DNA of 64,000 nt from a virus. Position 1 is the first letter of the stretch, and each line of letters begins with the position of its first letter. The notes below the pieces were generated by a model, which made no database searches, had not been told where the DNA came from, and worked only from the letters and a program-made list of their open reading frames with translations. The stretch covers positions 10,835 to 74,834 of the IMG/VR virus record IMGVR_UViG_3300002460_000024. One strand, given 5' to 3'. Positions 1-16,186 of this stretch are shown here, one piece after another. A program made the translations under genes and the position numbers.

Positions 1-85
1 ACAACCAAAGAGGAAGTGAGAATACAGTTAGTTGCCCGATTTGTATGATATACTGGAAATATGATTGCAGCGACTAACCTCTTAA

Positions 86-162
86 TTTTTTAAAAATAGG
101 TGAGGGCCAAAAACTATGGGCGGCCTTTAGCGCCAAAGCCTGTGTTGCCCATAGCCTTAAAT
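86..162 (+). repeat. Direct repeat of 1742-1819 (right half of an attC-like site plus cargo start GTTGCCCATAGCCTTAAAT)
   Basis: Near-identical sequence of about 77 bp, ttttttaaaaataggtgagggcc...gttgcccatagccttaaat. Confidence 0.9.
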
Positions 163-178
163 CACGAAAAAATTGAGT

Positions 179-385
179 ATGAAACTAAATAGGAAAGTAA
201 CATTAGAGCCAAAGACCATTAACCTAAGAGTTGAAGATAGAATGCTTAGTATTAATTATCGAATACGGGATGACATTACAGGAATTGGATTTGGTGATAC
301 TTGGGTTAATTTTACTCCTAGCGATAAGTTGATTGAAATATTAAAAACAGAAGTAAACGAAGCAATTAAAAACTATAAAAAATAA
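179..385 (+). CDS. Hypothetical cassette protein
   Basis: ORF after GTTGCCC; ATG at 179 preferred to TTG at 173. Confidence 0.6.
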   Translation: MKLNRKVTLEPKTINLRVEDRMLSINYRIRDDITGIGFGDTWVNFTPSDKLIEILKTEVNEAIKNYKK

Positions 386-390
386 ACACA

Positions 391-744
391 ATGGGAAATT
401 TAATTAAACACGCAAAGTTTGAACTTGAACTAGCTGATATGTTCAATGAAAAAGGAGATTTTTACGGAGGCATGACCGCTGGTGCAGTTATGGAATTGAT
501 TAAGGTTTTTGAGAAACAAGGACATTCTGGTGGTTCGGCTCCAGGAGTAATTGCTTTGTTTTCAAAACTAGCAAACTATGAAATAATATTTAATAGGATG
601 AAATCAGAAATTGAAAAACAATTTGGAGTTAAAATAACAGAAGCTCCATTTACATATTTAAGTAATGTAAAAGAAAACGAACTTATTTTATCATGCCAAA
701 AAGATTACAATAATATGATAATGGCTGTATTGACCCCAAATTAA
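391..744 (+). CDS. Hypothetical phage protein (QGHSGGSA motif)
   Basis: 117-aa ORF in tandem with its neighbours. Confidence 0.7.
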   Translation: MGNLIKHAKFELELADMFNEKGDFYGGMTAGAVMELIKVFEKQGHSGGSAPGVIALFSKLANYEIIFNRMKSEIEKQFGVKITEAPFTYLSNVKENELILSCQKDYNNMIMAVLTPN

Positions 745-750
745 ATTTAT

Positions 751-960
751 ATGAGCTTGATAGAATCAACTATTTTTCACGGAACTAAATACTCATTTGA
801 TAAGAGTAAATTAATCTTCGTTGGCTTTTCAGAAAACGGTCTTAACCTTGTTTTTGAAACAGCAGAAGTTGAAATTACTATTACCGATATGAAAGACAGA
901 GAGAGGCAGTACAAGGATATTATTAATGTATGGAAAAGCTACAAAGGTGATTTATTTTAA
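751..960 (+). CDS. Hypothetical cassette protein
   Basis: 69-aa ORF, tightly packed. Confidence 0.6.
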   Translation: MSLIESTIFHGTKYSFDKSKLIFVGFSENGLNLVFETAEVEITITDMKDRERQYKDIINVWKSYKGDLF

Positions 961-1047
961 TTTTTAAAAAGCGTGCAGGCCAAATTAAAAAAAGTACTAA
1001 AGAAACGAGAGGGTGAGTTTAGCTCCTACCGAAATTGCTGGTTATTC
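957..1047 (+). repeat. Direct repeat of 4981-5071
   Basis: About 90 bp, ttaatttttaaaaagcg...gaaattgctggttattc, present in both places. Confidence 0.9.
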
Positions 1048-1048
1048 G

Positions 1049-1142
1049 GGCTAACCTCCGAGGCTTTGCGTCAGTTTTAAAAATACCAATGAAAAAAAAC
1101 AGAAAAGACATTTTTAAAATTGCGTTAAAGCCGATGTTATGC
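1049..1142. other. attC-like hairpin A1
   Basis: GGCTAAC-ctccga-GGCTTTGCGTCAGTTTTAAAAAT...ATTTTTAAAATTGCGTTAAAGCC-gat-GTTATGC. Confidence 0.7.
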
Positions 1143-1189
1143 TTAGTATTTTTTATCATTTTTTGTGCGAGGGCTTTACCTAACTAACT

Positions 1190-1627
1190 ATGAAAGACAG
1201 AAACTTACCACATTCGGACAATTGGGCGACACCGCCTTATGTTTACGATAAACTTAATGAGGAATACAATTTCAATTTCGACCCATGCCCTTTGAAGCAT
1301 GATATCACGAAATGGGACGGATTGGAAATTGAATGGAAGGAACGGAATTTTATTAACCCGCCTTATTCAAAGGATCTAAAACCAAAATTCATTTTAAAGG
1401 CGGTTGATGAAATGAAGAAAGGAAAACTTTGCGTGTTATTACTGCCCGTTTCGACAAGCACAAAACTATTCCATGATATCATCTTGGCGAACGCAACAGA
1501 GCCAGTAAAGTTTTTCAAGGGCAGAATTAAGTTTATTGGACATAATACGAAGGGAGAATTGGTAAGTAACAAAAGCCCGATGCACGATAGTATGTTAGTT
1601 GTATTCGATGGGCGGGAAAAAAAATGA
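1190..1627 (+). CDS. Phage DNA N6-adenine methyltransferase (Dam-like, short form)
   Basis: DNWATPP, FDPCP, catalytic NPPYS and GRIKF motifs. Confidence 0.85.
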   Translation: MKDRNLPHSDNWATPPYVYDKLNEEYNFNFDPCPLKHDITKWDGLEIEWKERNFINPPYSKDLKPKFILKAVDEMKKGKLCVLLLPVSTSTKLFHDIILANATEPVKFFKGRIKFIGHNTKGELVSNKSPMHDSMLVVFDGREKK

Positions 1628-1640
1628 TAAAAAATATTGA

Positions 1641-1807
1641 GCATAACTCCGAGGCTTTGCGCTGAATTTCCTCCCTGCGGGAGATTCCGCTTACCAAGGG
1701 ATGTGCGAAGGACGGAAGATTGAAAGCAGGGAGGAAATTCATTTTTTAAAAATAGGTGAGGGCCAAAAACTATGGGCGGGCCTTTAGCGCCAAAGCCTGT
1801 GTTGCCC
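1641..1807. other. attC-like hairpin A2
   Basis: GCATAAC-tccg-AGGCTTTGCGCT...AGCGCCAAAGCCT-gt-GTTGCCC with one extra C; internal perfect 15-bp IR gaatttcctccctgc/gcagggaggaaattc. Confidence 0.75.
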
Positions 1808-1849
1808 ATAGCCTTAAATGCTAGATAAATAAATTTAAATAACGATAAT

Positions 1850-2224
1850 ATGCAGTATAGTCCAAAATTGAAAAAAGCAGCAGAAGAAATAAAAGCAATA
1901 CTTACGAAGTATGATATTGCTGGTGTTGTATTATTACATACTCCGGGGCATAGTGAATACTTATTACGATTAGACCCGTCTTATTCATGTGCTAATATGA
2001 ATGAGAAAACAGGCGAAGTAAGATTAAAAGCTACCGAGGCATTGCATGGTAAAAAGAAACGTGACCAAATGTTAGAAGATACTACAAATATGATTGTTTG
2101 TTTATCGGACGTAACCGCTATGCAGGCCATGAATCTTATTGAACTTCGTAAATTACTTGAAACTAAATTTGAAATAATAACACAGGATAACGGGCATACC
2201 ACCCATGATACACAAAACAATTAA
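1850..2224 (+). CDS. Hypothetical cassette protein
   Basis: 124-aa ORF. Confidence 0.7.
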   Translation: MQYSPKLKKAAEEIKAILTKYDIAGVVLLHTPGHSEYLLRLDPSYSCANMNEKTGEVRLKATEALHGKKKRDQMLEDTTNMIVCLSDVTAMQAMNLIELRKLLETKFEIITQDNGHTTHDTQNN

Positions 2225-2234
2225 AACAAAAATT

Positions 2235-2459
2235 ATGAATGAAAAACAAATGCTACAGTCCGCAGTAAATGAACTTCGTGGATTAAGAAAACAAAACGAA
2301 ATTATGAAAGCTCGTTTAGATATGTTCGATACTATGACAGCAATATTGCACACAGATATTGCAAGGCAAAACGGAGATGCAATGCACCCTGATATTGTTT
2401 ATGAAATTGATAAATATTTAACTAACTTAGAAAAAGAAGCCACCAATGAAACCAATTAA
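2235..2459 (+). CDS. Hypothetical cassette protein
   Basis: ATG at 2235 after an A-rich leader. Confidence 0.65.
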   Translation: MNEKQMLQSAVNELRGLRKQNEIMKARLDMFDTMTAILHTDIARQNGDAMHPDIVYEIDKYLTNLEKEATNETN

Positions 2460-2703
2460 ATTTCCAGAGGTTAATAAAACCTACGCAGAAAATCAACCTG
2501 AATATTTGCCGTTGCCAGTATTTAAAGCAGATACCCCACAAGGCGAATGTGTTTCTTGCTGGAAACTTTCTTTTCGTGAAAGGATTAGAATATTATTTAC
2601 AGGCAAGTTGTGGGTAAGTCTGCTTACATTTAATAAGCCACTTACTCCTTCTTATTTTACAACGAAGAAATCGGAAGTATTAACCTTTTCAAAAAATGAG
2701 TAG
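2446..2703 (+). CDS. Hypothetical cassette protein (QPEYLPLP motif)
   Basis: 85-aa ORF overlapping the upstream gene end. Confidence 0.7.
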   Translation: MKPIKFPEVNKTYAENQPEYLPLPVFKADTPQGECVSCWKLSFRERIRILFTGKLWVSLLTFNKPLTPSYFTTKKSEVLTFSKNE

Positions 2704-2823
2704 CATTTTTAAGGGGATTTTTAAAAAAAGCATAGCCTCGGAGGTTGCCCACAAAGGCGTATGGCCAAGCACAGTAAAGCAAACGTTTTTCAGTTTGCGA
2801 TGTGGTTGCCGTTTTAAGGTTGT

Positions 2824-3090
2824 GGGCAACGGTTTCGTGTTGCCGAAGTTGATGGCGAGAAGAAGGAATAAAGGGGCCTTTAGCGCCAAAGGCAATGCGG
2901 GTTTATTCGTTCTTTAAAAGCCAGAAACAAGGTCAAACTTTCATCCCATCAATTTTGAGCAACACATTGATAGGCTAAGTTTACCGGGGGAGTTGCAGAT
3001 ACCTTTAGAAAGTTTGTCACGAAACCGATAGGCTAAATTTAGGATGAGAGGTTTGAAAATTAATTGGCGAAATTTTGTAAAAATTTAAAA
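2824..3090 (+). repeat. attC-like hairpin A3 plus leader; repeat of about 265 bp of 5227-5492
   Basis: GGGCAAC-ggtttc-GTGTTGCCGAAGTTGATGG...CCATCAATTTTGAGCAACAC-att-GATAGGC; highly similar copy at 5231-5492. Confidence 0.85.
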
Positions 3091-3116
3091 AGTAAACTAA
3101 TAAATAAACGAAAAGT

Positions 3117-3416
3117 ATGGGATTATTCAGTAAAACACCTAAAGTAGAATTGCTACCGTTAGGCCATAAAGTAGAATTAGGTACTCGATTTTGGAAAGTT
3201 TTTGAAAGCAAAGTTTATGAATGTCATGTTGCAAGACTTTCAATAAGCCGTTCTGATGAATTATTTTTATCGCAGAACCCAAGTAGTAATTATGATGAAA
3301 CAAAGTATTTAATTCATACTATTTGCGACAAGCATGTTGGTTGGTTTCACGAAGAGGAAGTGGTTAAGATGATAAAGTTTAAAACAAAAAAAGAACTTTA
3401 TGAAAGTGATAACTAA
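3117..3416 (+). CDS. Hypothetical cassette protein
   Basis: 99-aa ORF between IRs GATAGGCTAAATTTA (3027) and TAAATTTAGCCTATC (3495). Confidence 0.7.
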   Translation: MGLFSKTPKVELLPLGHKVELGTRFWKVFESKVYECHVARLSISRSDELFLSQNPSSNYDETKYLIHTICDKHVGWFHEEEVVKMIKFKTKKELYESDN

Positions 3417-3418
3417 AC

Positions 3419-3509
3419 CTTTTAGCAGCTATGCTGCCCCGCCAATTCTTTTTTTAAACAGAGCAGCCGTGTGCGGTTTTGGGTTGTGGAGAGGTAAATT
3501 TAGCCTATC
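3419..3509 (+). repeat. Cassette 3' segment, repeat of 6030-6121
   Basis: About 90 bp, cttttarcagctatgctg...taaatttagcctatc. Confidence 0.9.
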
Positions 3510-3581
3510 GTTGACGGGTATGCGTTCGGTTTTGCTCCAAAAAATAACACGGCAAAACTGACGACATACCCGATGTTACAG
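3503..3581. other. attC-like hairpin A4
   Basis: GCCTATC-gttga-CGGGTATGCGTTCGGTTTTGC...GCAAAACTGACGACATACCCG-at-GTTACAG. Confidence 0.75.
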
Positions 3582-3635
3582 GCAGTTAAAAATGGCTAAA
3601 CGAAAATTAATATAAACAACTAAAACAAAACAACT

Positions 3636-3920
3636 ATGTGTACAGTATCAATGATTGGAGACCACTTCAATGACAAATGGAAACAACCATTTTATCAGCA
3701 AACTTTTACCAACATTCCCGAAATTACGAAGGCGGAATTTGATGCACTCAAAAAGGAAGTTGAAGAAATGAAAGCATTGCTAAAGAGAGCAAAGTTATAT
3801 GACGAAAAGAATGGAGAACCGAATTGCGAAATGGATGAGAAGATGACAATGCTTAGAAAATTTGCCGAAGCAGTTGGTATAAGTTTGGACGACATCATTA
3901 AGAAACCAGATGCCAAATAG
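3636..3920 (+). CDS. Hypothetical cassette protein (MCTVSMIGD; EPNCE)
   Basis: 94-aa ORF between IRs gttacaggcagttaaaaatggcta and tagccattttttattgcctgtaac. Confidence 0.75.
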   Translation: MCTVSMIGDHFNDKWKQPFYQQTFTNIPEITKAEFDALKKEVEEMKALLKRAKLYDEKNGEPNCEMDEKMTMLRKFAEAVGISLDDIIKKPDAK

Positions 3921-3934
3921 CCATTTTTTATTGC

Positions 3935-4064
3935 CTGTAACCGGACAAGCCTTTATTTAGTGCGGGCTTAAAAGCACTAAGCAACAATTAAAGATAAAAG
4001 ATTATGGAAAGCACAAAAGTTGATAATAGCACAGAACCCGCATTGAATAAAGGCATTGTTAGCA
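3935..4064. other. attC-like hairpin A5 (contains the start codon of the next ORF)
   Basis: CTGTAAC-cggacaa-GCCTTTATTTAGTGCGGG...CCCGCATTGAATAAAGGC-att-GTTAGCA. Confidence 0.8.
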
Positions 4065-4240
4065 GCAGTACGGCATTAGAACCGAAAGTTGTTAATCACG
4101 GGAATGTGTTTGGAACAAAGAACTGGTACACATTTTATTGCCCACATTGTGGAAGCCAAATAACAAACAGAAGTGCAAATTGCGAAGGAAGTTATCCAAT
4201 TAAAGGATGTAATGGGGCAATAAAATGGAACGAGAAGTAG
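4004..4240 (+). CDS. Small zinc-ribbon protein
   Basis: CPHCG and further Cys residues; N-terminus encoded by the hairpin arm. Confidence 0.7.
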   Translation: MESTKVDNSTEPALNKGIVSSSTALEPKVVNHGNVFGTKNWYTFYCPHCGSQITNRSANCEGSYPIKGCNGAIKWNEK

Positions 4241-4321
4241 TATTGCTGCTAACGGCTGCGGAATAACAGCAGTTTCTTTAGTACGTTTTAATTTTAAGGT
4301 GGGATTTTAAAAATAAATTAT

Positions 4322-4651
4322 ATGAATGGAAAAAGTTTAAAAGTTCAGAAAGCTGAAAAGTTTGTAGATGATTTTATTAAATCAGAAGGGCATACGCCCA
4401 CCTACAATGATGTAAAAGAATACATGGGCTTTAAGAGCAATGCTCAAGCCTATGGTATTTGTGCAAAATTCAGAGATAAAATGAAGGCAATTACTAAAAA
4501 CGAAAAGAGAATACATATTGAGATTGATGATGAAAACCAAATTATGGTTAGCCGAAAAGGATTTAACAACTACGAGGCACTTGGAGTTTTAGAGGCTACC
4601 GTTTTGATGGTTAAAAATGAAATATTAATAAGTATAAACAAGGGTAAATAA
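4322..4651 (+). CDS. Protein with a LexA-like winged-HTH N-terminal domain
   Basis: FIKSEGHTPTYNDVKEYMGFKSNAQAY resembles LexA DBD (G.PPT..EI....GF.S); no peptidase domain. Confidence 0.6.
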   Translation: MNGKSLKVQKAEKFVDDFIKSEGHTPTYNDVKEYMGFKSNAQAYGICAKFRDKMKAITKNEKRIHIEIDDENQIMVSRKGFNNYEALGVLEATVLMVKNEILISINKGK

Positions 4652-4653
4652 TT

Positions 4654-4791
4654 ATGAATCAGTTAGACATAATAAAAGAAGAACTCGAAGATTGCTATGA
4701 TTTATGGAGTAGATTTAGTTGTGACTGCCTTCATTATTATATGCTATATCTTGAAAAAAGGAAACGTCAATTAGAAATCATAAACAATTAA
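4654..4791 (+). CDS. Small hypothetical protein (45 aa)
   Basis: Hand translation MNQLDIIKEELEDCYDLWSRF...; below the ORF-track cutoff. Confidence 0.5.
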   Translation: MNQLDIIKEELEDCYDLWSRFSCDCLHYYMLYLEKRKRQLEIINN

Positions 4792-4795
4792 ATGT

Positions 4796-4975
4796 ATGTA
4801 CTACCATAACACTACTAAAAACCTATTAAACGAATCAGAGTTTGAAGATTTCTACTGGAACTACGAGGAAGGGGATTCAATCTTTAAAACGGAACGTGGA
4901 AATGCAATACTTATACCAATGACCTACGAGGAGGTAATTGAAAAGGCAAAGCATGATAATATAGTCGAAGAATAG
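4796..4975 (+). CDS. Small hypothetical protein (59 aa)
   Basis: Hand translation MYYHNTTKNLLNESEFEDFYWNY... Confidence 0.55.
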   Translation: MYYHNTTKNLLNESEFEDFYWNYEEGDSIFKTERGNAILIPMTYEEVIEKAKHDNIVEE

Positions 4976-5226
4976 TTCTTTTAATTTTTAAAAAGCGGGA
5001 TGGCCAAATTAAAAAAAGTACTAAAGAAACGAGAGGGTGAGTTTAGCTACTACCGAAATTGCTGGTTATTCAGTGTTAGCCTGAGTGCCATGCTAATAGG
5101 TGAACGCAAAGCTAAACGAACAAGGAGTTGGCTTATTCCGCAGCCGTTAGCCCGAATCGGGTTGGCGCAACAAAGTAAAGTCCTCCATTTTAGAGGACGA
5201 TTTGTTGCCTGTTGTGGTGGCATTCG

Positions 5227-5492
5227 GGCTAACGGTTTCGTGTTGCCGAAGTTGATGGCGAGAAGAAGGAATAAAGGGGGCTGTGCGGCCAAAGGCTTGC
5301 GGGTTTATTCGTTCTTTAAAAGCCAGAAACAAGGTCAAACTTTCATCCCATCAATTTTGTGCAACACATTGATAGGCGAAGTTTACCGGGGCCGTTGCAG
5401 ATACCTAAAGAAAGTTTGTCACGAAACCGATAGGCTAAATTTAGGATGCGAGGTTTAAAAATTAATTGGCGAAATTTTGAAAAAATTTAAAA
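5227..5492 (+). repeat. attC-like hairpin A7 plus leader; repeat of 2824-3090
   Basis: GGCTAAC-ggtttc-GTGTTGCCGAAGTTGATGG...CCATCAATTTTGTGCAACAC-att-GATAGGC. Confidence 0.85.
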
Positions 5493-5501
5493 TTTAAATA
5501 T

Positions 5502-5762
5502 ATGAGTACAGAAAACATAGAACAATGCCCAGAGTTTCCATACTTCGGAGCCTCTTATCCTGATGCAAGATGTGTAAGTGGATATTTACACGATATGGAT
5601 AGCTGTGATGAACATGGTAATTTATATGTAATGAGTGAAAGTCACCCATGCCCATTTTGTAATACAAAAGAATTTTTAAAAAACCAACGGGACAATGAGG
5701 CTGATATGACCAAAGTGAAAAAATGGATGGAAAATATTAAAAACGAATATAGCTATAAATAA
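5502..5762 (+). CDS. Cys-rich hypothetical cassette protein
   Basis: CPEFPYFGASYPDARC...PCPFCN. Confidence 0.7.
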   Translation: MSTENIEQCPEFPYFGASYPDARCVSGYLHDMDSCDEHGNLYVMSESHPCPFCNTKEFLKNQRDNEADMTKVKKWMENIKNEYSYK

Positions 5763-5764
5763 TT

Positions 5765-6037
5765 ATGAAAGACTTATTAAAGCTCCTATGGGAAAAGAAA
5801 TGGGAAGCCGATGAAGAATATACTAAAAATGCAAATAGATATTCAGAAGGCAAAAGTGATGCTTTTTTATTTTGCATAAATGAAATTCAACATCCAAAAT
5901 GTAAAGCGGATATTAAAGTTTTGGTGAATGGAAGGGTGGGTTATACTACCTCTGTTGTGGCTCATTCGGGGGGTATATACCCAGTATGGTTTGATGGTGG
6001 CGTGGAGTTTGTAAATGCTAAAGACGTAACCTTTTAA
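5765..6037 (+). CDS. Hypothetical cassette protein
   Basis: 90-aa ORF. Confidence 0.65.
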   Translation: MKDLLKLLWEKKWEADEEYTKNANRYSEGKSDAFLFCINEIQHPKCKADIKVLVNGRVGYTTSVVAHSGGIYPVWFDGGVEFVNAKDVTF

Positions 6038-6206
6038 CAGCTATGCTGTACCGCCAATTCTTTTTTTTAACAGAGCAGCCGTGTGTGACTTTGGGTTGTG
6101 GGGAGGTAAATTTAGCCTATCATATATCTGTATTTATCACAATGCAACATATTTAAAAACAGTACGTTAAATACGGTATATTTCAAACAATGAAAAAACG
6201 ATTGTA

Positions 6207-6602
6207 ATGAATATAGATAGATGGTCAGAGCAATTCGAGAAGGATATGCAAGTAATTCGTAATAGCCAAAGCACCCGTGATAATTATGGGTGCCAGGTTA
6301 AAATGTTTTTGGCATACTTTGAAAAACTCAACTACACTTCTCCTGAAAGAATTAATGCGGAAAAGATAAAAGATTATTTGCTTACAAAAATTAGCAATAA
6401 CAATCAGCGTCACGCCCATTCTGCTATAAAACATTTCTATAAAATTACAGTTCACCAGGAGCTTAAGTTTAGATTTATTCAATATGCGGAAAAAGAGAAG
6501 AGGCATCCCATAATTTTAAGCAGGGAGGAAACTAAAAGATGGTTTGAGGCGTGTACTAATGTAAAGCATAAGTGCATGGCATTGAAACCCAATTTACACT
6601 AA
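6207..6602 (+). pseudogene. Truncated tyrosine recombinase (integron-integrase-like N-terminal SAM-like domain)
   Basis: SQSTRDNY..VKMFL..F, SAIKHFY, HPIILSREE...NVKHKCM; stops just before the expected box I (Y..GLR) with no catalytic domain following. Confidence 0.8.
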
Positions 6603-6625
6603 ACAAAAAGCAAATAATTTAGATT

Positions 6626-6874
6626 ATGAATACAGATGTAAAAAAAGAGGTTAAAACAATAGAAGTGATTATACCACCAGACACAGACGAGGCAGTTCAT
6701 ATAATAAGATTAATTTTCCCCAATGGGTATAATGTTGCAATGACCCCAAATGCTTTAAAGGAGGTTATAAATGAGCATTCCGAGAAATATGGGGTTATAA
6801 TTGATGATGATATGAATAGAGAGAAATTTGATATGATTTTAAAAGAAAGACGCCTCTCCGCTTCTAAGGATTAG
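6626..6874 (+). CDS. Hypothetical protein
   Basis: 82-aa ORF. Confidence 0.6.
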   Translation: MNTDVKKEVKTIEVIIPPDTDEAVHIIRLIFPNGYNVAMTPNALKEVINEHSEKYGVIIDDDMNREKFDMILKERRLSASKD

Positions 6875-6967
6875 TCCTGTCTATTTCTTATTATTTCAAT
6901 TCCATCGTATAGCTCTTGAAAGAATAATTCGGGGAGGATATGCACATACTTAAATATAATTTTTACG

Positions 6968-7282
6968 TCATCTCCCTTCTCCTCTATCAAATCCGCATAT
7001 TACATATTCAGCCGTGCCAATATCTATTTTATCCTCCTCAGAAATAAATAGAATATCCTCGTAAGGATATGAGTATATGAATTCATGGAGAAGAGTTTTT
7101 GTAATCGTGTTGTAGTCGGGCCTCTCTTCAATAATTTTTAGATTATTAAAACGAATATTATGACTTTTACTTACAGAATCGAACGAATACTCGACAATGC
7201 TATCTGGGAATAAATTGCATATATTCTTTAAATAATTGTATATCAGTAATTTACTCGTCATCATGGTCATCGTAGGCGTCAA
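6968..7282 (-). CDS. Hypothetical protein
   Basis: ORF; true start probably an internal Met. Confidence 0.6.
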   Translation of the reverse strand: MTPTMTMMTSKLLIYNYLKNICNLFPDSIVEYSFDSVSKSHNIRFNNLKIIEERPDYNTITKTLLHEFIYSYPYEDILFISEEDKIDIGTAEYVICGFDRGEGR

Positions 7283-7508
7283 ACTTTTTACGAGCCCGTA
7301 ACTTGTCCTGGATAGTTACCACTCCGGCAGTAATTCCAACAACCAGAGAGACAAAAGAAAGTAAATGAAGCCCCACAACCACCCAGGAGTCAAAATTACC
7401 AAGCCATCCGAATAATTGTGTCACCCCATAAATCCCTGCTGATATTACCCAAACAAGCAATCCATTTCCTCCTGGGGGAGTATGATTAACATGATCTATT
7501 ACATTCAT
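7251..7508 (-). CDS. Putative holin/membrane protein
   Basis: Two hydrophobic segments and a charged C-terminal tail; next to the spanin. Confidence 0.55.
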   Translation of the reverse strand: MNVIDHVNHTPPGGNGLLVWVISAGIYGVTQLFGWLGNFDSWVVVGLHLLSFVSLVVGITAGVVTIQDKLRARKKFDAYDDHDDE

Positions 7509-7861
7509 TTTCTTTCGTAGATTTTACCCTGTGGACTTTTTACTTTTGTGGGCTGCATCCACCCTAAGGCATCTTTAAGCAACGCAGTTATAGCGTCAGG
7601 GCATAACCCTATTACAACAGAATATATTGAAAACCATTCATATTTTATCAACTTGGTAGTCAGTTCTGGCCTTATATTAAACAAGATGCATAGAGCAACA
7701 GCCAGTGGAACAGAATGCAAAAGCCTAATCCAATTGTCCTTTAAATAGAACCAAAGGCTTCCTTTTACTGGTGAAGCATGACTTTCTCGTTTTCGGGTCT
7801 TATAGTAGCCCCAATTAGCTATGAAAATTCCTAAGAATAGATAAATGAAACTGTAAAGCAT
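7505..7861 (-). CDS. Putative holin/membrane protein
   Basis: Three hydrophobic segments and a basic C-terminus. Confidence 0.55.
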   Translation of the reverse strand: MLYSFIYLFLGIFIANWGYYKTRKRESHASPVKGSLWFYLKDNWIRLLHSVPLAVALCILFNIRPELTTKLIKYEWFSIYSVVIGLCPDAITALLKDALGWMQPTKVKSPQGKIYERK

Positions 7862-8750: not shown

Positions 8751-9895
8751 AGGCCCATTGCTGTTAAAAGTGTTTCAAAATCAGATTTAAAATTAGCATA
8801 ATCTGTATCGTTAAACGTTCCAGTAGTAATCATTTGCAGGTACTGTTCTCTAGCGGTAAGTATAATCACTGATCCTGGCCCAATTCCTAATCCATGTCCG
8901 GTTATCTCTATGCCATTTTCGCTCGAGGAGGGCTTGGCTGTTGGTGTAACGGTGTCATTACTATAAACATTTGTTGATGCTGCGCCAGTTCTTACTGCGC
9001 CAAATAATCCTGTAGTAATAACCGGGCCATCGTTAGTGCCAGAATCATTTACACAACTGTTATTATCACCAGCACTATTCATTATAAGTCCTAGATAAGA
9101 TGTGGCTAAATCAGTACAACCAATATCCCAGCCAACTGCATCATTTGTATTGCTCCATATAAAAACTCCAACACTATTTAAAGATATTTCAGCAACAGCA
9201 TTTGGTATAATTCCAGTTCTTGTAAATTTAGTTAAAGCATTTCCTATCCTACCACCACCCTCCAAACAATTAGCATCCACAAAACCAACATTAGTAATTG
9301 GGTAATTACCTATAACCGTTACAGAACCATCTAAATTAAAATAAAAAGGAACCATTTTGGCCGCTGCATCTGCACCAAATACACAAATCTCTAAATGCAC
9401 TATTTTTGATCTATATGAGTTAGTTACCGCTGCGTCACGATCAAACCTATTGGCGATATTTTCTATCTGAGCCTGCGTATAAATTACGTCCACTAATAAA
9501 CCCCCATTATCAAAAACCCCCTCAACGTATGTTTTTACTTCGGGCCGATTCGCAACAGCAATAAAATTTATTTTTGTTTCAGTATCAAATCCACCATCGT
9601 TTGTAGCCGTCAACGCTATTGTCCAATCGCCAACTTTTTCAACCAATAATGTAGGATTTTGAGCAGTTGAAAAAACAACAACAACACTATCAGGATCAGT
9701 ATATGACCAACTCCATGAAGTAGGTGTATTTGTTGAGGTGTCTGTAAATGTTACGGTTTCACCCCATTCGGGAATTAGATCATTAACAGTAAAGTCAGCT
9801 ACCGGCGGATCAACCGCATTAACCAATCGTCTACGCTGCCTTGTTTTAAGGGGCTTATCCTTACGGACAAATCGTAAATTCTTTATTCCCCACAT
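8747..9895 (-). CDS. PKD-domain virion/receptor-binding protein
   Basis: PPVADF...VTFTDTSTNTPTSWSW...QNP...LTATN PKD signature; beta-rich C-terminal domain. Confidence 0.75.
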   Translation of the reverse strand: MWGIKNLRFVRKDKPLKTRQRRRLVNAVDPPVADFTVNDLIPEWGETVTFTDTSTNTPTSWSWSYTDPDSVVVVFSTAQNPTLLVEKVGDWTIALTATNDGGFDTETKINFIAVANRPEVKTYVEGVFDNGGLLVDVIYTQAQIENIANRFDRDAAVTNSYRSKIVHLEICVFGADAAAKMVPFYFNLDGSVTVIGNYPITNVGFVDANCLEGGGRIGNALTKFTRTGIIPNAVAEISLNSVGVFIWSNTNDAVGWDIGCTDLATSYLGLIMNSAGDNNSCVNDSGTNDGPVITTGLFGAVRTGAASTNVYSNDTVTPTAKPSSSENGIEITGHGLGIGPGSVIILTAREQYLQMITTGTFNDTDYANFKSDFETLLTAMGL

Positions 9896-10590
9896 TACCC
9901 TACATAAATTTCATACCTAACGGTAGCTGGATCAGCCCCATTTACTTCAATAATACGAGCATTTGTAATATTTGCCTTTCCAACAATATCAAAAGGATTC
10001 TCATCCACCACTAAAATACCAGTTGTGGTAGTAACGGCCACACCTGTTTCAAGGTAATTTATATCCCCACCTACCGTAGTGCCCATTAAAATCGGAGTTC
10101 TTGGATCTGTTGCCATATTATACCCTGGTCGTGTTTTTGTTATTGTGCATCTAGCCAAAGACGAAAACTCAATTACCACATAAGGAACATCGGCAGTTAC
10201 CGTGAAGGCTCCGGAACCAGTACTGGCTCCAGTAACTAAATCCTTCAATAATATCGCCGTGGCAGTTTGCAAGGATGAGTTAACCTGATACTCACTTGTA
10301 TTAAGTTGGGCCATTAAAGCTGCTGCAGTATTGGTTTGGGTCGTTACCCAGTCCTGATTAAAATATACAAAGTCTCCAGGTTGTCCCGGTAGTCCATATA
10401 GTTGTTGAGCCTCAAGTGAAGTAGCATATACCCTTATTCCCAATGCGGTAACCTGAGAAGCCACTGCAATTACAGCACCGGTCCATAGTTCGTTTTGGGT
10501 TGTTGTAAAGGCAGTTGAAGTTGTAGGGGTTAGTGATCCACTAAGGATTGCGTCTCCTAAAGATGCGCTTGATTTATCAATGAAGGCCAT
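9895..10590 (-). CDS. Putative structural protein
   Basis: T/A/G-rich, 231 aa, own promoter. Confidence 0.6.
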   Translation of the reverse strand: MAFIDKSSASLGDAILSGSLTPTTSTAFTTTQNELWTGAVIAVASQVTALGIRVYATSLEAQQLYGLPGQPGDFVYFNQDWVTTQTNTAAALMAQLNTSEYQVNSSLQTATAILLKDLVTGASTGSGAFTVTADVPYVVIEFSSLARCTITKTRPGYNMATDPRTPILMGTTVGGDINYLETGVAVTTTTGILVVDENPFDIVGKANITNARIIEVNGADPATVRYEIYVG

Positions 10591-10606
10591 ATTCGAATAA
10601 TTTTAT

Positions 10607-10614
10607 CAAATATA
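10607..10614 (-). promoter_or_regulatory. Bacteroidota sigma70 -7 box (TAnnTTTG)
   Basis: TATATTTG just upstream of ATG 10590. The same box type occurs at 7879, 18823, 27259, 36290, 37173, 41910, 50590, 51823, 54527 and 56951. Confidence 0.75.
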
Positions 10615-10635
10615 GGAAAATTTGGGGCGACGCAA

Positions 10636-10920
10636 TTAAAGTATTATAATTTCTTTGCCCTGTGCATCAAAAATATGACATGCATCATCCTTTTTTAGCC
10701 ATTTCACCTCATAAAACTCCTTAATACTATTGATCGGAATAACCCCATACTTAACCATCAGTGACGAATAAATGATATAATCTGTGTTAAATTGAAGGGG
10801 AATTGTTTGGTTTTCGACCTTTATCATCTCATAGCTTACCCTTGTGGCCTTAATCACCAATTTCTTACCACCATCATTAAAATCAATCAAGTATCCCTTT
10901 TTGTAATAAACTCTTTTCAT
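10636..10920 (-). CDS. Hypothetical protein
   Basis: 94-aa ORF. Confidence 0.65.
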   Translation of the reverse strand: MKRVYYKKGYLIDFNDGGKKLVIKATRVSYEMIKVENQTIPLQFNTDYIIYSSLMVKYGVIPINSIKEFYEVKWLKKDDACHIFDAQGKEIIIL

Positions 10921-10925
10921 ATTAA

Positions 10926-11624
10926 TTACGTCGCCCTATAAAACTCAAAATCCCCTAAAGGGCTTCTACCCTCTTTTATAGCATAAGCTATATCTTCCGG
11001 CCTGAGCCCTAAGCCTTCCTCTTCTATTTTCATTACTAATGACGCATTTAATGGCTTTGATTTATCCCCGGACAAAAATTCTTGCTCCATTTTTTGTAGG
11101 ATATCGGCTGTTTCCTTCCACTTCATAATATCTGTGGTGGTGGCATCCTTATTGTTTCGGAGCTTCTTCATACCTTCGTAGTATTTTTCTCGTAACGTAA
11201 CTATTGCTGAAAACATATCAGAATAACTATGTCTTAAGAACTCTACGATCATGTAATTCACTACCTCATTCTCTCCATCCATCATTTTCTCCACTAAATC
11301 CCCAAATTTTCCATTATCCGGGTCATAGTCAAATCCAGCTTGAATAGCACAGGCCACTTTTCTTTTGTCGTACTCTGGATAAGCGGCCTTTATGCAGTCC
11401 AACTCCATTGAATACATAAAATTTATATACCTGATAATCTTGTTTCTGGCGATTATCCTGGAATCGTCCGTTGATCCCCACGCAAAGAACCCGTAAGCAA
11501 AACCCCCAAGTCTGGTTAGTTCCGGCCTCTCTACTAAATAGTCATAATGGAGGGGAATCTCATGTATTCCCACTCCATCCTTTTTTATCCTGACCTTGTT
11601 TAGTTCTTCTTTAGTAAATTCCAT
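10926..11624 (-). CDS. Hypothetical phage protein
   Basis: 232-aa ORF. Confidence 0.75.
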   Translation of the reverse strand: MEFTKEELNKVRIKKDGVGIHEIPLHYDYLVERPELTRLGGFAYGFFAWGSTDDSRIIARNKIIRYINFMYSMELDCIKAAYPEYDKRKVACAIQAGFDYDPDNGKFGDLVEKMMDGENEVVNYMIVEFLRHSYSDMFSAIVTLREKYYEGMKKLRNNKDATTTDIMKWKETADILQKMEQEFLSGDKSKPLNASLVMKIEEEGLGLRPEDIAYAIKEGRSPLGDFEFYRAT

Positions 11625-11645
11625 GGTGGGGCGACGAGATTAATG

Positions 11646-11909
11646 TTACCTAAACTCTACTTTAAAATATTTATTTAACTCTTTACAAATATCCTCATTG
11701 CTGATTTTAGGCACTCCGGGTTTTCCCCAATTTGGTTTTATTTGAACCTCCCACCATCTATAAACCTGACTGATACAATATAACTCAATAGACTCTGGCC
11801 GTGTAAAATGACCCTCGTCTTGTTTTTTTCGCATACCATCCACAATGGTTTTAACAGCATATTCAACGGAATAGTCTATTTTTTCATTTCCTTTAATTTC
11901 GTCACCCAT
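11646..11909 (-). CDS. Hypothetical protein
   Basis: 87-aa ORF, translationally coupled. Confidence 0.65.
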   Translation of the reverse strand: MGDEIKGNEKIDYSVEYAVKTIVDGMRKKQDEGHFTRPESIELYCISQVYRWWEVQIKPNWGKPGVPKISNEDICKELNKYFKVEFR

Positions 11910-13102
11910 TATCCAGCCGATTTAGCAATTTTAATCATTTCCGTTATCTGTAATTCAGAAGCCTTTGCTAAGAACTCTAATATCATTGCATCGTCTCCTT
12001 TTGTAGTGTCCATCTCTGGTTTTAATGTCATTTTGCCAAAGGCGTAGATTATAGCCACAGGCACTACTCCCATCTTTCTGAGATTGTCCAATAACTGTAA
12101 ACAAATTTCTTCATCCCTGTCGGTTCCCATGTGTTCTGGGATATTAAAGTCTAAGTTCAACTTGTGGATGACGGGTAATATTTCTTCCTCTTGTGGTATT
12201 ACCGGTGGGGGCGACGTAATTAATGCTATCGCCGCTTCCTTTTCTAATTGAGTTTCCACCTTAATTTGGGCCCAAAACGCCTCTTCCCCAAATACCCTAA
12301 ATTGAATAATACATCTCCTGATCTTTAAATTGGATCTCCGAGGAAATTTATCAATTACTTTATATGGGTTAATTGGGCATAAATCGTTGTCTGCTGATCC
12401 ATAAATTTGAGTGGATGTTGAGGCGTAGATTTTGTCTAACGCTTCCACCACTTTCACTTCGCTCAAACAGGCATTTAAAGGGACCTTGATTTCCCAATCA
12501 CCGGCATTTATTTTGTCACATAAAATCTGACTTGGTTCTGGTTCTTCTTTTGCTGGTTTTTCAAGTGGCAAATCAACTAAGTTTTGCTCTTTTACTACTT
12601 CGGCTATGGCGGCCGCTAAATCGTCTTTAGGAGCCAACATCATTCCTTCGGGTGGTGCCATATCTTCTATTTTTACAGTAGGTTTAGGCTGTATAACGGC
12701 ATCCGGATGCTCTGAACTAAACGCCTTATCCCTTACCTGCTCTTTTGTCAACGAATTTCCACCCTCTTCGCCAGTATAAATCTTAAACAGCATCTTATAA
12801 AGATATTTTTCTGCCAAAGTTGCCGTCGCCCCAAAATGATAATCTCTACTACTTATAGGAAACGACATATTCGCTACACACCTACTATCATCTTCGGTAT
12901 CTACAAATTCCATTTCTAATAGAAAGGTGTCCCCAATAATTTGTCCATGTGGAATTGTGATGACTCCGTGGGTATTTAAAAGTGGAACCAATGCTTGATT
13001 CATTTGCTCATCCGAAATAATTTTTACTCCATCTACCTCTCTATCCTTTTTAAAGTCTGGAAGGGATTGTCTTATTAAAAGTATTTTTTTATATATGCTC
13101 AT
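11909..13102 (-). CDS. ERF-like ssDNA annealing protein
   Basis: MSIYKKIL...PLLNTHGV...GATATLAEKY...LFKI.TGE matches the ERF N-domain pattern; next to SSB and YqaJ. Confidence 0.65.
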   Translation of the reverse strand: MSIYKKILLIRQSLPDFKKDREVDGVKIISDEQMNQALVPLLNTHGVITIPHGQIIGDTFLLEMEFVDTEDDSRCVANMSFPISSRDYHFGATATLAEKYLYKMLFKIYTGEEGGNSLTKEQVRDKAFSSEHPDAVIQPKPTVKIEDMAPPEGMMLAPKDDLAAAIAEVVKEQNLVDLPLEKPAKEEPEPSQILCDKINAGDWEIKVPLNACLSEVKVVEALDKIYASTSTQIYGSADNDLCPINPYKVIDKFPRRSNLKIRRCIIQFRVFGEEAFWAQIKVETQLEKEAAIALITSPPPVIPQEEEILPVIHKLNLDFNIPEHMGTDRDEEICLQLLDNLRKMGVVPVAIIYAFGKMTLKPEMDTTKGDDAMILEFLAKASELQITEMIKIAKSAG

Positions 13103-13131
13103 TTTAGTATTTTAAAAGTGTTTCTGAATAT

Positions 13132-13836
13132 CTAAAAAGGTAAATCATCCTTCCATGTTTTATCGGCATCCGTTCCTCCACTTGTAGTTGCTGGTGCTGC
13201 ATCTTCCTCTACATGCTGATCCTCATTCAAATCTTTTACCGTAGTGCCAATAGAGGTGGAAGTGGTAGGTGCCTTTACCATTTCATACTTAGATAACACC
13301 TTATCAATTAAGGCATCGAAAAAATCATCCACGCCGGTATAATCATTAAGAGTTTTACCCTGATACTCCACTTTCTTCATCCGAGGCTCCAAATGCTCTT
13401 TGTACCCATACTTCATATCTACCTTCTCAGCGCCTCCCGAAGTAATAACCTTCACCGAAGCTCCAGCAAATCCCTTGTCTCCCCTATAAAAAGATATTTT
13501 TAATTGGTCTTTGAATGACGGCAAAGATGCTAGGCGATTAATTAATTCTCTCACCGGACCTGAGTATAACAGATCAAATACATACTTCTCATTCGCATCT
13601 GTATCGGTTAAAGTAAACCTGCACCCCCTCATTCTACCGTACTTCTCTACTATTTTATCCACCTTAGTAATCTCGGTGATATACCCCGTTAGGAAAGATA
13701 CCGTCTCCACCACCTCATACACCTCTCCCTTTTTTTGTTGCAGGTCCATGCAAGGGTAATCCTTTACATCTGCTTTTAAATTTTTAGGCTTTACATAAAA
13801 GTAAGTGCCTCCTGATTCTGTTGTACCTCTAGCCAT
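13132..13836 (-). CDS. Putative ssDNA-binding protein
   Basis: Acidic C-terminal tail ending DDLPF. Confidence 0.65.
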   Translation of the reverse strand: MARGTTESGGTYFYVKPKNLKADVKDYPCMDLQQKKGEVYEVVETVSFLTGYITEITKVDKIVEKYGRMRGCRFTLTDTDANEKYVFDLLYSGPVRELINRLASLPSFKDQLKISFYRGDKGFAGASVKVITSGGAEKVDMKYGYKEHLEPRMKKVEYQGKTLNDYTGVDDFFDALIDKVLSKYEMVKAPTTSTSIGTTVKDLNEDQHVEEDAAPATTSGGTDADKTWKDDLPF

Positions 13837-13837
13837 T

Positions 13838-14890
13838 TTAGTTTAATTTATTTATTTCGTTTCGTATTAATTCTGCTGTCATTTCCTTACCACTTACTAC
13901 ATGTTTTTTATTCATGGAGCTACGGCACCCATCCCCTAATATCAATGTTATTCCGTTGTGCTCATGGACTCTTAATAGGGTGTTTTTGATAAGAACTTGC
14001 TTCTTTTTGATCTCCTTTTGAATGTCGTTGTAATACTGGTAAGTATGCATTAAAGTTTCCATTGGGGGCGACGCAATTATTCTGCGATCAGGATTATCCT
14101 GGTTCTGAAAACGAGCCGACAAAAACGCTCTGTAAGCATCACTATCGTCCGGTAACGGCTCCAACTCCATAATATCCTTTTGTATAGCTTCCTTATCAGC
14201 TTTCTTGGATGTTAGTTTTAGTCTCTTTGCCAATGGTCGTGCTGGTAGCACCCTCTCATACCAAAAATGACTACATATAGCCATAATAGATTTTGAAAAC
14301 TCTTCAACATAAGGAACCTGGTTAATATGAAGCTCATTGCCTCCTTTTAAACAAGCCAATTCAGCATACTCAGTTCCAAAAACCATCATTTCTCCGTGGA
14401 CTTGCTCATGGTGCTCTGGAATATAACCGTCCATAGAGTCCCATTTTAAGGAGTCAATATTCTTAACCTGCAATGGTGCGTCTTTCTCCAACTCATACCC
14501 ATCTAATCTTTTTTCTCCTTTTGGAATTGTTCCGTCTGGGGTGCAGGAAAGAAATGGGATATCTTCATTGACTAAAATATATCCATCGTTCTTTATAAAA
14601 GATCGGATTCTTTTTTTTTCCATGTAATTCTCTACGTATTTTTCTTTGCCCTCTTCCCAATACTGCCACAGATCCAAAATAATCGGTTCGTGAATATGCC
14701 CCATAAAAGGGCGCTCAGCCATCCTATGCTGACCGCTACCTAATCCTATTTTTTGATAAAACACATCAATAGGGCTCCCGTAATTCCTGTTTGAGCCAGT
14801 AAGAATGGGAATATCACTACACCCTATATAGTTTGTTCGCAATTCTAACCACTCAGGAGTATTAACCTCTATTGGTATCTTTTGTAACAT
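13838..14890 (-). CDS. YqaJ/lambda-exonuclease family nuclease
   Basis: EWLELR..YIGCSDI, GHIHEP, FLSCTPDG, QVK motifs. Confidence 0.85.
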   Translation of the reverse strand: MLQKIPIEVNTPEWLELRTNYIGCSDIPILTGSNRNYGSPIDVFYQKIGLGSGQHRMAERPFMGHIHEPIILDLWQYWEEGKEKYVENYMEKKRIRSFIKNDGYILVNEDIPFLSCTPDGTIPKGEKRLDGYELEKDAPLQVKNIDSLKWDSMDGYIPEHHEQVHGEMMVFGTEYAELACLKGGNELHINQVPYVEEFSKSIMAICSHFWYERVLPARPLAKRLKLTSKKADKEAIQKDIMELEPLPDDSDAYRAFLSARFQNQDNPDRRIIASPPMETLMHTYQYYNDIQKEIKKKQVLIKNTLLRVHEHNGITLILGDGCRSSMNKKHVVSGKEMTAELIRNEINKLN

Positions 14891-15197
14891 AAAAATCTGT
14901 TTTTATTTTGATTAGCAACGGCAACTTTACGGTTAAAACATAGATTGCGTCGCCACACTCCCTACAAAACAACTGTATTTTAAAACTATCAACTAATGGA
15001 CTAGCCCCTCTTGATATCTTCAAATACTCAAAAGGCCCTATATAGGAGTGATCCTTTATTTTTATGATATGCCCATCTTTTTGTAATCGGCAAATAACCT
15101 TACCCCAAATATTTTTTATTTCAATATATGTTCCTTCTCTAAAATAAGAAGGTAGTTCGGGTGAAAATTTATATTTGTTAGGCTTCCAGGTTATCAT
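14862..15197 (-). CDS. Hypothetical protein
   Basis: 111-aa ORF. Confidence 0.55.
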   Translation of the reverse strand: MITWKPNKYKFSPELPSYFREGTYIEIKNIWGKVICRLQKDGHIIKIKDHSYIGPFEYLKISRGASPLVDSFKIQLFCRECGDAIYVLTVKLPLLIKIKTDFYVTKDTNRG

Positions 15198-15992: not shown

Positions 15993-16186
15993 TTGAAAAT
16001 AATTTTATCAACTTTAATTTCGTACACCGCCAAAATCTCATCCAGTTTTTTAAGGCTAACATCTCCTTTACTCAACCACTTTGAAATAGTAGATGTGCTT
16101 TTACAGAGGCGAGAGGCTATATCATTCTGGGTTATTCCCCTTCTCTTTAATTCTGCGTTTATATGAGCTAGTATAAGGTTTTTCAT
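15989..16186 (-). CDS. XRE-family HTH regulator
   Basis: GITQNDIASRLCKSTSTISKWL. Confidence 0.85.
   Translation of the reverse strand: MKNLILAHINAELKRRGITQNDIASRLCKSTSTISKWLSKGDVSLKKLDEILAVYEIKVDKIIFK

Follow-up and report, generated by a model that had tools for sequence, protein, structure and literature searches.

Two phage gene units with shared ends around unrelated genes are probably cassettes of one integron-like array

The stretch of DNA analysed here (the window, 64,000 nt) comprises bases 10835–74834 of a 74.8-kb IMG/VR virus contig, IMGVR_UViG_3300002460_000024, and coordinates are those of the window unless "contig" is stated. The contig is that of a tailed phage, encoding a terminase, a portal protein, a DnaB-like helicase, Erf, a RecE/YqaJ-like exonuclease and GroEL, and the phage is present in groundwater and soil metagenomes. 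Its + strand carries an array (contig 9995–16955) that parses into about ten gene-sized units or cassettes, each with a TAAC-type core at its end. Two of these, 2831–3509 and 5234–6121 (A and B), are the subject of this work: their ends are copies of one another (together, the frame) and enclose unrelated open reading frames (ORFs; the cargo). In the feature lists L' and L'' denote the two arms of a hairpin, and R'' and R' the complementary boxes on either side of the body of a unit.

2744..2830, + strand: bracket without an ORF (H_A, GTTGCCCACAA...TTGTGGGCAAC), end of the preceding cassette (11-nt perfect inverted repeat, fold)
2831..3027, + strand: frame A hairpin (U4), closed by L' GGTTTCGTG and L'' CACGAAACC (fold z −4.5)
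3027..3041, + strand: R''-equivalent box of frame A, GATAGGCTAAATTTA (16-nt perfect complement, 3026–3041 with 3495–3510)
3042..3096, + strand: AT-rich conserved 5' leader of frame A (alignment; homology to copy B fades at about 3090–3096)
3117..3416, + strand: cargo A, a 99-aa ORF without a family (nothing in Pfam or PHROGs)
3416..3494, + strand: conserved 3' segment of frame A, a predicted hairpin of about 80 nt (RNAalifold on the two copies)
3495..3509, + strand: R'-equivalent box of frame A, TAAATTTAGCCTATC (complement of 3027–3041; the cassette ends after TATC)
5146..5233, + strand: bracket without an ORF (H_B, GTTAGCCCGAAT...ATTCGGGCTAAC), end of the preceding cassette (12–14-nt inverted repeat, fold)
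5234..5428, + strand: frame B hairpin (U4 copy B), 94% identical to copy A (fold z −5.3)
5429..5443, + strand: R''-equivalent box of frame B (15-nt perfect complement to 6107–6121)
5502..5762, + strand: cargo B1, an 86-aa Zn-ribbon-like protein, CPEFPYFGASYPDA...PCPFCNT (PHROG 20542 and 6134)
5765..6037, + strand: cargo B2, a 90-aa ORF without a family (near-identical variants only)
6028..6121, + strand: conserved 3' segment and R'-equivalent box of frame B (its TATC is the last cassette boundary before the integrase fragment)
6207..6602, + strand: 131-aa N-terminal fragment of an Xer/IntI-like tyrosine recombinase (Pfam Phage_int_SAM_4; TIGR02249, 42 bits)

An earlier note on this DNA had described two units with common 5' and 3' ends around unrelated ORFs, and self-BLAST of the contig together with pairwise alignments bears this out. 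The 5' flanks (2824–3090 and 5226–5492) are 94.05% identical over 269 nt (E 5e-113) and the 3' flanks (3416–3509 and 6028–6121) 91.5% identical over 94 nt (E 3e-30); a repeat search and the pairwise alignments are consistent with self-BLAST for both. The outer edges are sharp: on the left the homology begins with AAC followed by GGTTTCGTG (2828/5231) and the preceding sequences differ, and on the right it stops at the last letter of GCCTATC (3509/6121). At the inner edges homology is lost about 10–27 nt 5' of the ATG (~3090/5492) and is back at the stop codon (3416/6028). The reading frame is not kept across the 5' flank (a 1-nt indel separates the copies), so this flank is non-coding. The three cargo ORFs are mutually unrelated, and BLASTP among the 16 ORFs of the array found no pair at E<0.05. 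Cargo B1 belongs to a widespread phage family (36 homologues; 63 viral loci), the sole relative of cargo A is a 96%-identical variant, present in SRR3990167, and relatives of cargo A and B2 were not found in viral contigs. A second pair of repeats described at the same time is equally real: its two copies are 97.6% identical, and unrelated ORF sets then follow.

The boundaries of the cassettes lie at 78, 1055, 1647, 2830, 3509, 3941, 4253, 5233 and 6121, and inverted repeats of 10–29 nt, which abut without spacers, bracket gene sets. Stems of at least 10 nt number 84 in the array versus about 21 in shuffled sequences, a fourfold excess. The further features that define this grammar, and the second pair of repeats, are as follows.

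3932..4073, + strand: canonical hairpin, R' TGCCTGTAAC, L', loop with ATG 4004, L'', R'' GTTAGCAGCAGTACGG (reference for the cassette grammar within the window)
1136–1164/1619–1647, 1053–1065/2734–2746 and 2744/2830, + strand array: bracket inverted-repeat arms, first set
3575–3598/3918–3941, 4058/4253, 4248–4266/5133–5151 and 5146/5233, + strand array: bracket inverted-repeat arms, second set
82..162 (copy A) and 1738–1819 (copy B), + strand: second repeated non-coding segment, each copy 5' of a different three-ORF set

The bracket partners of the canonical hairpin are 3575–3598/3918–3941 and 4058–4067/4244–4253. When the ORF list is read against the boundaries, no ORF crosses one that follows TAAC, and homologies internal to the contig start or stop at cassette boundaries (AAC followed by (C)TCCGAGGCTTTGCG at 1055 and 1647, ATTCGGGCTAAC as the end at 1055 and 5233, and the frame itself). 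Homology breakpoints in the window lie directly after AAC at 1055, 1647, 2830 and 5233. The terminal CAAC of H_A is the core immediately 5' of frame copy A, and the homology between A and B begins right after it. The proposal that the shared ends are the true unit boundaries thus stands: they coincide with TAAC-type cores, and in the relatives described below homology breaks exactly after TAAC on both sides.

Among the other contents of the array, cassette 1056–1647 carries a Dam-type methylase. The repeat 952–1047/4976–5071 runs on in both copies to the same end, ATTCGGGCTAAC; the 4976–5233 copy has about 161 extra nt between GGTTATTC and GGGCTAAC relative to the 952–1055 copy, and the last 36 nt before the ATTCGGGCTAAC core recur at contig 9995–10030, the start of the array. 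Two perfect inverted repeats in coding sequence stand outside the cassette grammar, one of 13 nt within the Zn-ribbon ORF 4004–4240 (4131–4143/4215–4227) and one of 14 nt between ORF 391–744 and the methylase ORF (407–420/1424–1437).

Five cassettes, both frame copies included, each fold into one long hairpin (z −5.7 to −13) once their own 3' and 5' ends are joined, with 14–37 pairs spanning the junction. Because the joined ends fold in this way, the 5' flank (265 nt) and the 3' flank (94 nt) are the halves of one hairpin site and not separate homology arms, a point that the earlier note had missed. Within the 3' segments RNAalifold gives 26 pairs, and every paired difference between A and B keeps the pairing, partly via G.U (two sequences only, and so weak).

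The route to related elements in other phages was cargo B1. None of the 63 viral loci with a B1 homologue has frame DNA in common with the window, and two of them, L063 and L043, carry B1 within a bracket together with family hairpins (the other 61 do not). Their bracket boxes are GTTAGCAGCA...TGCTGCTAAC in L063 and GTTAGTGGCA...TGCCACTAAC in L043, with the 5' arms about 17 codons into the ORF, and the L063 boxes are identical to window 4055–4073/4238–4253, which enclose a different protein. A general inverted-repeat bracket around B1 homologues was considered and rejected, since such repeats occur at 15 of 46 loci versus 29 of 92 control windows and only those of L043 and L063 are real. Scanning viral contigs with TGTTANNNGCAGTACGG gave 121 sites, 24 of which have a perfect 10-nt partner (TGCNNN'TAAC) 267–3126 nt downstream and none upstream; GTAGTAT precedes the partner in 22 of the 24, and the R''/R' boxes carry 11 different covarying 3-nt barcodes. 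In nearly all members checked a second TAAC core lies 110–121 nt (132 nt in two) 5' of R'', and between the cores stands a conserved hairpin (TGCNNNTAAC-L'-loop-L''-GTTANNNGCAGTACGG), usually with a start codon in its AT-rich loop.

The consensus fold of 28 such elements has compensatory changes in 16 of its 24 pairs, and a covariance model built from them detected 96 elements across 100 loci, in same-strand arrays with as many as seven members. Across the 96, compensatory changes occur in 19 of 24 pairs and 94.9% of cells pair, as against 67% in shuffles; covariation scores 0.62, versus 0.14 for shuffled sequences and at most 0.074 with partners slid. The core-adjacent G.U pair is invariant on the + strand and the second nearly so, with A.C almost absent. 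All 96 elements lie on the coding strand; in the 27 bracketed cassettes examined the ORF is always sense-oriented behind the leader, L'' and R'' are read in one frame in 14, and a stop codon lies within R' in 19. The cargo of the relatives consists mostly of DNA methyltransferases (C5, N6/N4), with a PAPS-reductase-like protein, DUF5662 and others besides. In the window, the canonical hairpin 3932–4073 scores 105 bits with covariance model R1 (it is a member of the model's building set), and the model also detects contig 10028–10115 and window 1052–1140 and 3506–3586. Rfam gave nothing at gathering scores for the whole window nor at E up to 5 for 1–7000, and no published description was found in the literature on the box sequences and on phage hairpin cassettes, so that an integron-like phage cassette system of this kind is apparently undescribed.

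The frame of units A and B is a diverged relative of this family hairpin. Its L' and L''+GAT resemble family boxes (GGTTTCGGGC directly after TAAC in L093/L118, and CACAAAACCGAT at the boundary in L108), and its L'' plus spacer, CACGAAACCGAT, matches them too, while its 3' arm carries about 55–75 extra nt relative to the family hairpin and its R boxes are non-canonical, with GATA/TATC instead of the family GTTA/TAAC. The frame A hairpin includes a long inner stem, GTGTTGCCGAAGTTGATGG/CCATCAATTTTGAGCAACAC. Of the two frame hairpins, the covariance model picks up only that of copy B (5230–5382, starting at TAAC), and this weakly (6.7 bits, E 2.4). It takes the TATC at the end of frame A for the UAAC core of the next canonical hairpin, 3506–3586 (E 0.007). 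The AT-rich 5' leader of frame A might act as a promoter or leader.

Two smaller features of the frame hairpin were also seen. At 2969–2983 it holds a second, slightly different R''-like box, GATAGGCTAAGTTTA, preceded by ...GCAACAC-ATT, and it seems to contain one L''-R'' module nested in another, as though a second site had arisen inside the first by insertion or duplication. A 17-nt hairpin motif, GGCCTTTAGCGCCAAAG, at the tip of frame hairpin A (2875–2893) is the same as 120–140 and 1777–1797 in both copies of the 82–162 repeat; copy B of the frame is without it and reads GGGCTGTGCGGCCAAAG. The motif looks like a small conversion patch or a protein-binding hairpin.

Evidence that whole cassettes move comes from otherwise unrelated contigs with a cassette in common. 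Loci L132, L133, L163 and L170 have one cassette in common, and in all six pairwise comparisons the homology extends from the position after TAAC before the hairpin to the last C of the R' TAAC; L154 and L178 have the same breakpoints, and L107 and L118 the same at the right end. In an all-against-all BLAST of the family loci no pair had more than about one cassette in common. These breakpoints place the joint next to TAAC and show the hairpin travelling with the downstream ORF, which matches the frame of the window, where the hairpin/ORF region is shared and the neighbours are not. A mobile element of the IS200/IS605 type or a miniature inverted-repeat transposable element does not account for the arrangement: no Y1/HUH transposase was found (no Y1_Tnp in the contig), and the inverted repeats do not bound the shared unit, because the unit common to the genomes includes a hairpin outside the bracket.

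Frames and cargoes also reassort. L043 and L130 have 146 nt of hairpin and R'' in common (85.6%) with the same barcode, GTG, and carry respectively B1-family cargo and an N6 adenine methyltransferase; L130 and L119 have the methyltransferase in common (86%) from after GCAGTACGG to before GTAGTATTGC, with different hairpins, barcodes and neighbours; and B1 cargo is found in three different frames (window, L043, L063). Reuse of a frame with different cargo is, on these comparisons, a family-wide pattern. In canonical frames the joints between frame and cargo are the inner edges of the R boxes, and in the frame of A and B they lie 50–85 nt further in, so that a private leader and trailer are carried as well. 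Cargo swapping between flanks, as the earlier note had envisaged it, is in this sense seen in the relatives, but the exact frame was found nowhere else. The check that the note had proposed, a search for the same flanks around other cargo, came back empty in collections that exclude records very near the window's own genome: exact frame patterns had no match in viral contigs; in metagenome contigs the first pattern had none and the second had nine, all chance 18–23-mers; and blastn of the frame gave nothing against INPHARED phages and only chance matches of at most 35 nt against 315 fetched loci. In the methyltransferase cassettes of L132 and L133 (R'' 8688/1964, oriented coordinates), the ends are 94–95% identical and a middle of about 250 nt is wholly different; this is a mosaic inside the cargo gene, perhaps from the swap of a target-recognition region.

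The array is followed by a recombinase gene. From the last core to the integrase ATG is 50 nt in L080, 52 nt in L119 and 85 nt in the window, and in L161 an integrase is present further downstream; the spacers in the first three, which stand where an integron would have its attI site, have no recognised common motif. This position is as expected, since the + strand has the topology of an integron's recombining bottom strand. The window fragment has 35% identity with the L119 integrase and 28% with the L080 enzyme, and no PF00589 catalytic domain was found anywhere in the contig. The relatives' integrases are Xer/IntI-clade recombinases that are short (298 aa) and below every curated cut-off; the full L080 integrase scores 105 bits with TIGR02249 (cut-off 265), and the best integrase model, the XerA/IntI-like NF040815, gives 164 bits (cut-off 220). 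The gene in the window is truncated at about codon 123 by a 65-nt repeat present in three copies (6578–6644; contig 7462–7528 and 7567–7630), which extends from the last codons of one ORF via a spacer to the first five codons (MNTDV) of three ORFs.

We consider it fairly probable that units 2831–3509 and 5234–6121 are paralogous cassettes of an integron-like phage array built on one hairpin frame. A cassette starts right after a TAAC-type core on the + strand and runs through an imperfect hairpin (L' arm, AT-rich loop, L'' arm), an R'' box, the body and an R' box, the last being the reverse complement of its own R'' box and ending in the next core. The genes occupy the body in these two units; a canonical ORF often starts from the loop ATG and reads through L'' and R''. 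This anatomy is shown by the comparisons above, as are the conservation and covariation of hairpin and barcode, the breakpoints after TAAC and the independent assortment of frame and cargo; the mechanism that follows is inferred. In a circular cassette the 3' and 5' ends would join into one long hairpin, the putative recombination site, cut next to (T)AAC on the coding strand, and the predicted circle junction of the frame A cassette is ...TAAATTTAGCCTATC joined to GGTTTCGTGTTGCC.... Both flanks would then be one contiguous element of about 360 nt (hairpin site, leader and trailer) that holds one ORF (A) or two (B). The cutting would be done by a tyrosine recombinase of the Xer/IntI type, such as several phages encode just after the array (truncated here), and the folded + strand would be its substrate. 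A new ORF could enter the frame by two crossovers in the conserved boxes, either site-specific or through short-homology annealing via Erf/RecE. The YqaJ/ERF route for cargo swapping that had been suggested before is possible, since Erf/RecE annealing of short homologies in the boxes would fit, as would a site-specific double crossover.

A wider reading is held more tentatively, as something a little short of an even prospect: that the family is a gene-capture platform of Bacteroidota phages, in which a hairpin frame of about 145 nt would serve both as recombination site and as expression adaptor (start, leader and stop codons), unrelated coding bodies would be slotted in with the reading frame kept, DNA methyltransferases and other genes with a likely role in counter-defence would make up most of the cargo, and whole cassettes would move by cuts next to TAAC on the folded coding strand. 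Units A and B would then be a divergent sub-type with two cargoes, and the origin of cassettes would be directly testable.

Several points weigh against the integron-like interpretation of A and B. Neither circular junctions nor empty sites nor other cassette orders turned up in four sequencing runs, although contigs hide rare forms, and the array in the window may be frozen or inactive, since its contig is without a catalytic tyrosine-recombinase domain. Given 105 versus 265 bits, the integrases could be plain lysogeny integrases beside an accessory-gene region. The frame itself has R boxes without the GTTA/TAAC core and a hairpin of only 6.7 bits, and it is absent in its exact form from the viral, metagenome, INPHARED and fetched-locus searches. 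Finally, the fixed sense orientation, the loop ATG, the stop in R' and the conserved G.U pairs would also suit a role at the RNA level.

Among known systems the closest comparisons are integrons, the PeSL modules of T4-type phages, and pdif modules. With integrons (IntI, attI, attC; above all chromosomal arrays whose attC sites are uniform, such as Vibrio VCR arrays) the array has in common tandem same-strand units of gene size and imperfect hairpin sites that are conserved in structure more than in sequence, have AAC/GTT cores at their ends, as attC does, and flank unrelated genes. The frame under study is a weak, diverged member in this respect, with its GATA/TATC cores. The two end boxes of each cassette are complementary and, by the comparative evidence, the joints appear to lie next to AAC; an Xer/IntI-clade recombinase gene stands at one end of the array, placed and oriented as it would be if the + strand were equivalent to the integron bottom strand. 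The differences are as clear. Integron cassette ORFs lie on the strand opposite the recombining bottom strand and are mostly promoterless, being read from Pc beside intI, whereas here the ORFs are on the folding strand, the one that carries the G.U-containing fold, and point at the integrase. The hairpin here travels with the downstream ORF and often gives it an ATG and about 15–20 leader codons; the R boxes are long (14–17 nt) with a 3-nt barcode; the 298-aa integrases fall far below the IntI cut-offs; and the carrier is viral, with cargo rich in DNA methyltransferases, in a system known here from sequence comparison.

How an unrelated gene joins a recombination hairpin, that is, the origin of integron cassettes, is a long-standing open question, and the present system shows such joins: the same frame and barcode with different genes, the same gene in different frames, and joints at the inner edges of two short boxes. 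If active, it would be a phage-side counterpart of the bacterial integron "gene banks", with methyltransferases and small accessory genes tradeable to escape host restriction. It also lends itself to simple experiments, as both the site and the candidate enzyme are small and natural variants number in the dozens.

PeSL cassettes of T4-type phages combine a sigma-70 early promoter with a terminator, recombine homologously and have been detected as circular forms (PMC2839356, PMC4122927). That the flanks are PeSL-like regulatory linkers (terminator-like stem-loops with a promoter or leader), exchanged by homologous recombination through Erf and the RecE-like exonuclease with neither a site-specific recombinase nor a discrete cassette, appears unlikely to us. 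The resemblance is real: in both cases short conserved non-coding stem-loop modules recur between small non-essential phage genes in a plastic region and are exchange points for unrelated genes, circular forms have been proposed, and the shuffling and mini-circles of PeSLs give a precedent (PMC2839356, PMC4122927). The phage encodes Erf and a RecE/YqaJ-like exonuclease, and short non-coding repeats of four families mark gene boundaries in its contig; three families lose homology 8–30 nt before the ATG and/or regain it at the stop codon, and the fourth, the 65-nt repeat, crosses a stop codon into the first codons of the next ORF and stands in place of the 3' part of the integrase gene. The relatives' cargo joints, moreover, lie in conserved boxes that are usable as short homologies. 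Such linkers would, however, be expected to break at varied positions, whereas whole-cassette homology breaks at the same phosphodiester by TAAC in every comparison, and they leave no role for the covarying R''/R' barcode, through which the ends of a unit pair privately, or for the circle-junction hairpins. Of the many similar copies and the exchange between them that mark PeSLs, the contig has only 2–3 copies in each of its four repeat families, and exchange at the boxes is seen in relatives, though with exact joints. Nor are sigma-70-type promoters or intrinsic terminators enriched (28 promoter-like sites versus 24.6 and 5 terminator-like sites versus 4.9 in shuffled sequence, by models that may not fit the host). 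A Bacteroidota promoter motif was likewise rejected as an explanation of the flanks, as it is not enriched and the motif TAnnTTTG was not found upstream of any + strand ORF of the array.

It is less plausible still that the structures act in RNA only, where long-range pairing of 5' and 3' parts and hairpins between cistrons would control how a polycistronic early transcript is processed, stabilised or translated, with the two units arising by segmental duplication and later replacement of their ORFs. The coding-strand position of all 96 elements, the ATG in the loop, the single frame of L'' and R'' and the stop in R' at the frequencies given above, the near-invariance of G.U with almost no A.C on the + strand, and the pairs retained through G.U in the 3' flanks of A and B all speak for a role in RNA. 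Such a role leaves unexplained the identical cassettes in unrelated genomes with joints exactly after TAAC and the position of the integrase, and no Rfam family matches; RNA and DNA roles, for that matter, are not mutually exclusive.

Invertons, invertible switches of the kind seen in Bacteroides, are common in Bacteroidota. If the brackets were such switches, the R''/R' boxes would be recombinase sites and the enclosed gene would flip on and off; inverted repeats of 14–17 nt with a private 3-nt core do flank genes here, a tyrosine recombinase gene is nearby and the hosts are Bacteroidota. We judge this very improbable: the ORF is in sense orientation behind its leader in 27 of 27 bracketed cassettes, no strand-changing joints were seen in the four runs, and the hairpin between brackets and the breakpoints after TAAC are left unexplained. 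The brackets are also reminiscent of the pdif modules of Acinetobacter plasmids, which have 28-bp XerC/XerD sites of nearly constant sequence and use the host Xer proteins (PMC6449649, PMC13141974). There too modules are bracketed by inverted Xer-type sites, stand back to back and are shuffled between replicons, whereas here the brackets are not alike from module to module and are separated by a hairpin of about 120 nt; a dif-like 11-6-11 site was not recognised on inspection.

The last alternative, which the earlier note had itself named as grounds for dropping the proposal, is that the repeats arose in assembly, as an artefact or through the chimeric joining of strain variants, and to this we give hardly any credence, since Logan unitigs from two independent studies (X1, groundwater; X3, soil) reproduce every unique junction with 0 differences from the window and at even depth (about 43–45x and 21–24x). 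Single unitigs span both left junctions, both stretches from cargo to 3' flank and both right junctions, and the 3' flanks sit within single unitigs that also carry cargo and downstream DNA. The unitigs break only where the copies share 30-mers or longer; the 5' flank contains identical stretches of 49 and 60 nt, which are break points of de Bruijn unitigs, and the linkage of the middle 5'-flank variants to their cargo therefore rests on the assembler. What runs X6 and X7 contain, at about 3x depth, is this same phage and no relative that carries other cargo. In X1 and X3 other contigs match the end of the Dam methylase ORF (~1576–1623) and then continue with a different R'-type box, TAATGTCGCCTAAC, which points to a related, differently barcoded methylase cassette in these samples.

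The phage most likely infects Bacteroidota, because TAnnTTTG occurs 17–18 nt 5' of the start codons of many − strand genes, a Larkinella protein is among the cargo B1 family, and the few genomic members of the hairpin family are from Cyclobacteriaceae, Flavobacterium and Bacteroidetes metagenome-assembled genomes. The − strand TAnnTTTG sites (mostly TATATTTG) lie at 7879, 10607, 27259, 36290, 41910, 50590, 54527 and 56951 and correspond to a Bacteroidota −7 element with very short leaders. The closest relative of the terminase is only 29% identical, and a close genome for comparison is therefore not at hand. Upstream of the array the contig encodes a small serine recombinase of the resolvase type (contig 4487–5197, 86 bits) and an ORF that, by sequence, resembles an HNH/AP2-type homing endonuclease (contig 8836–9531); no link of either to the cassettes was found. 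One tandem repeat, of period 6 nt, makes up both contig 1–110 and window 63904–64000, and since the two contig ends match at 87–96% the genome may be circular or terminally redundant, and essentially complete, despite a completeness estimate of 66%.

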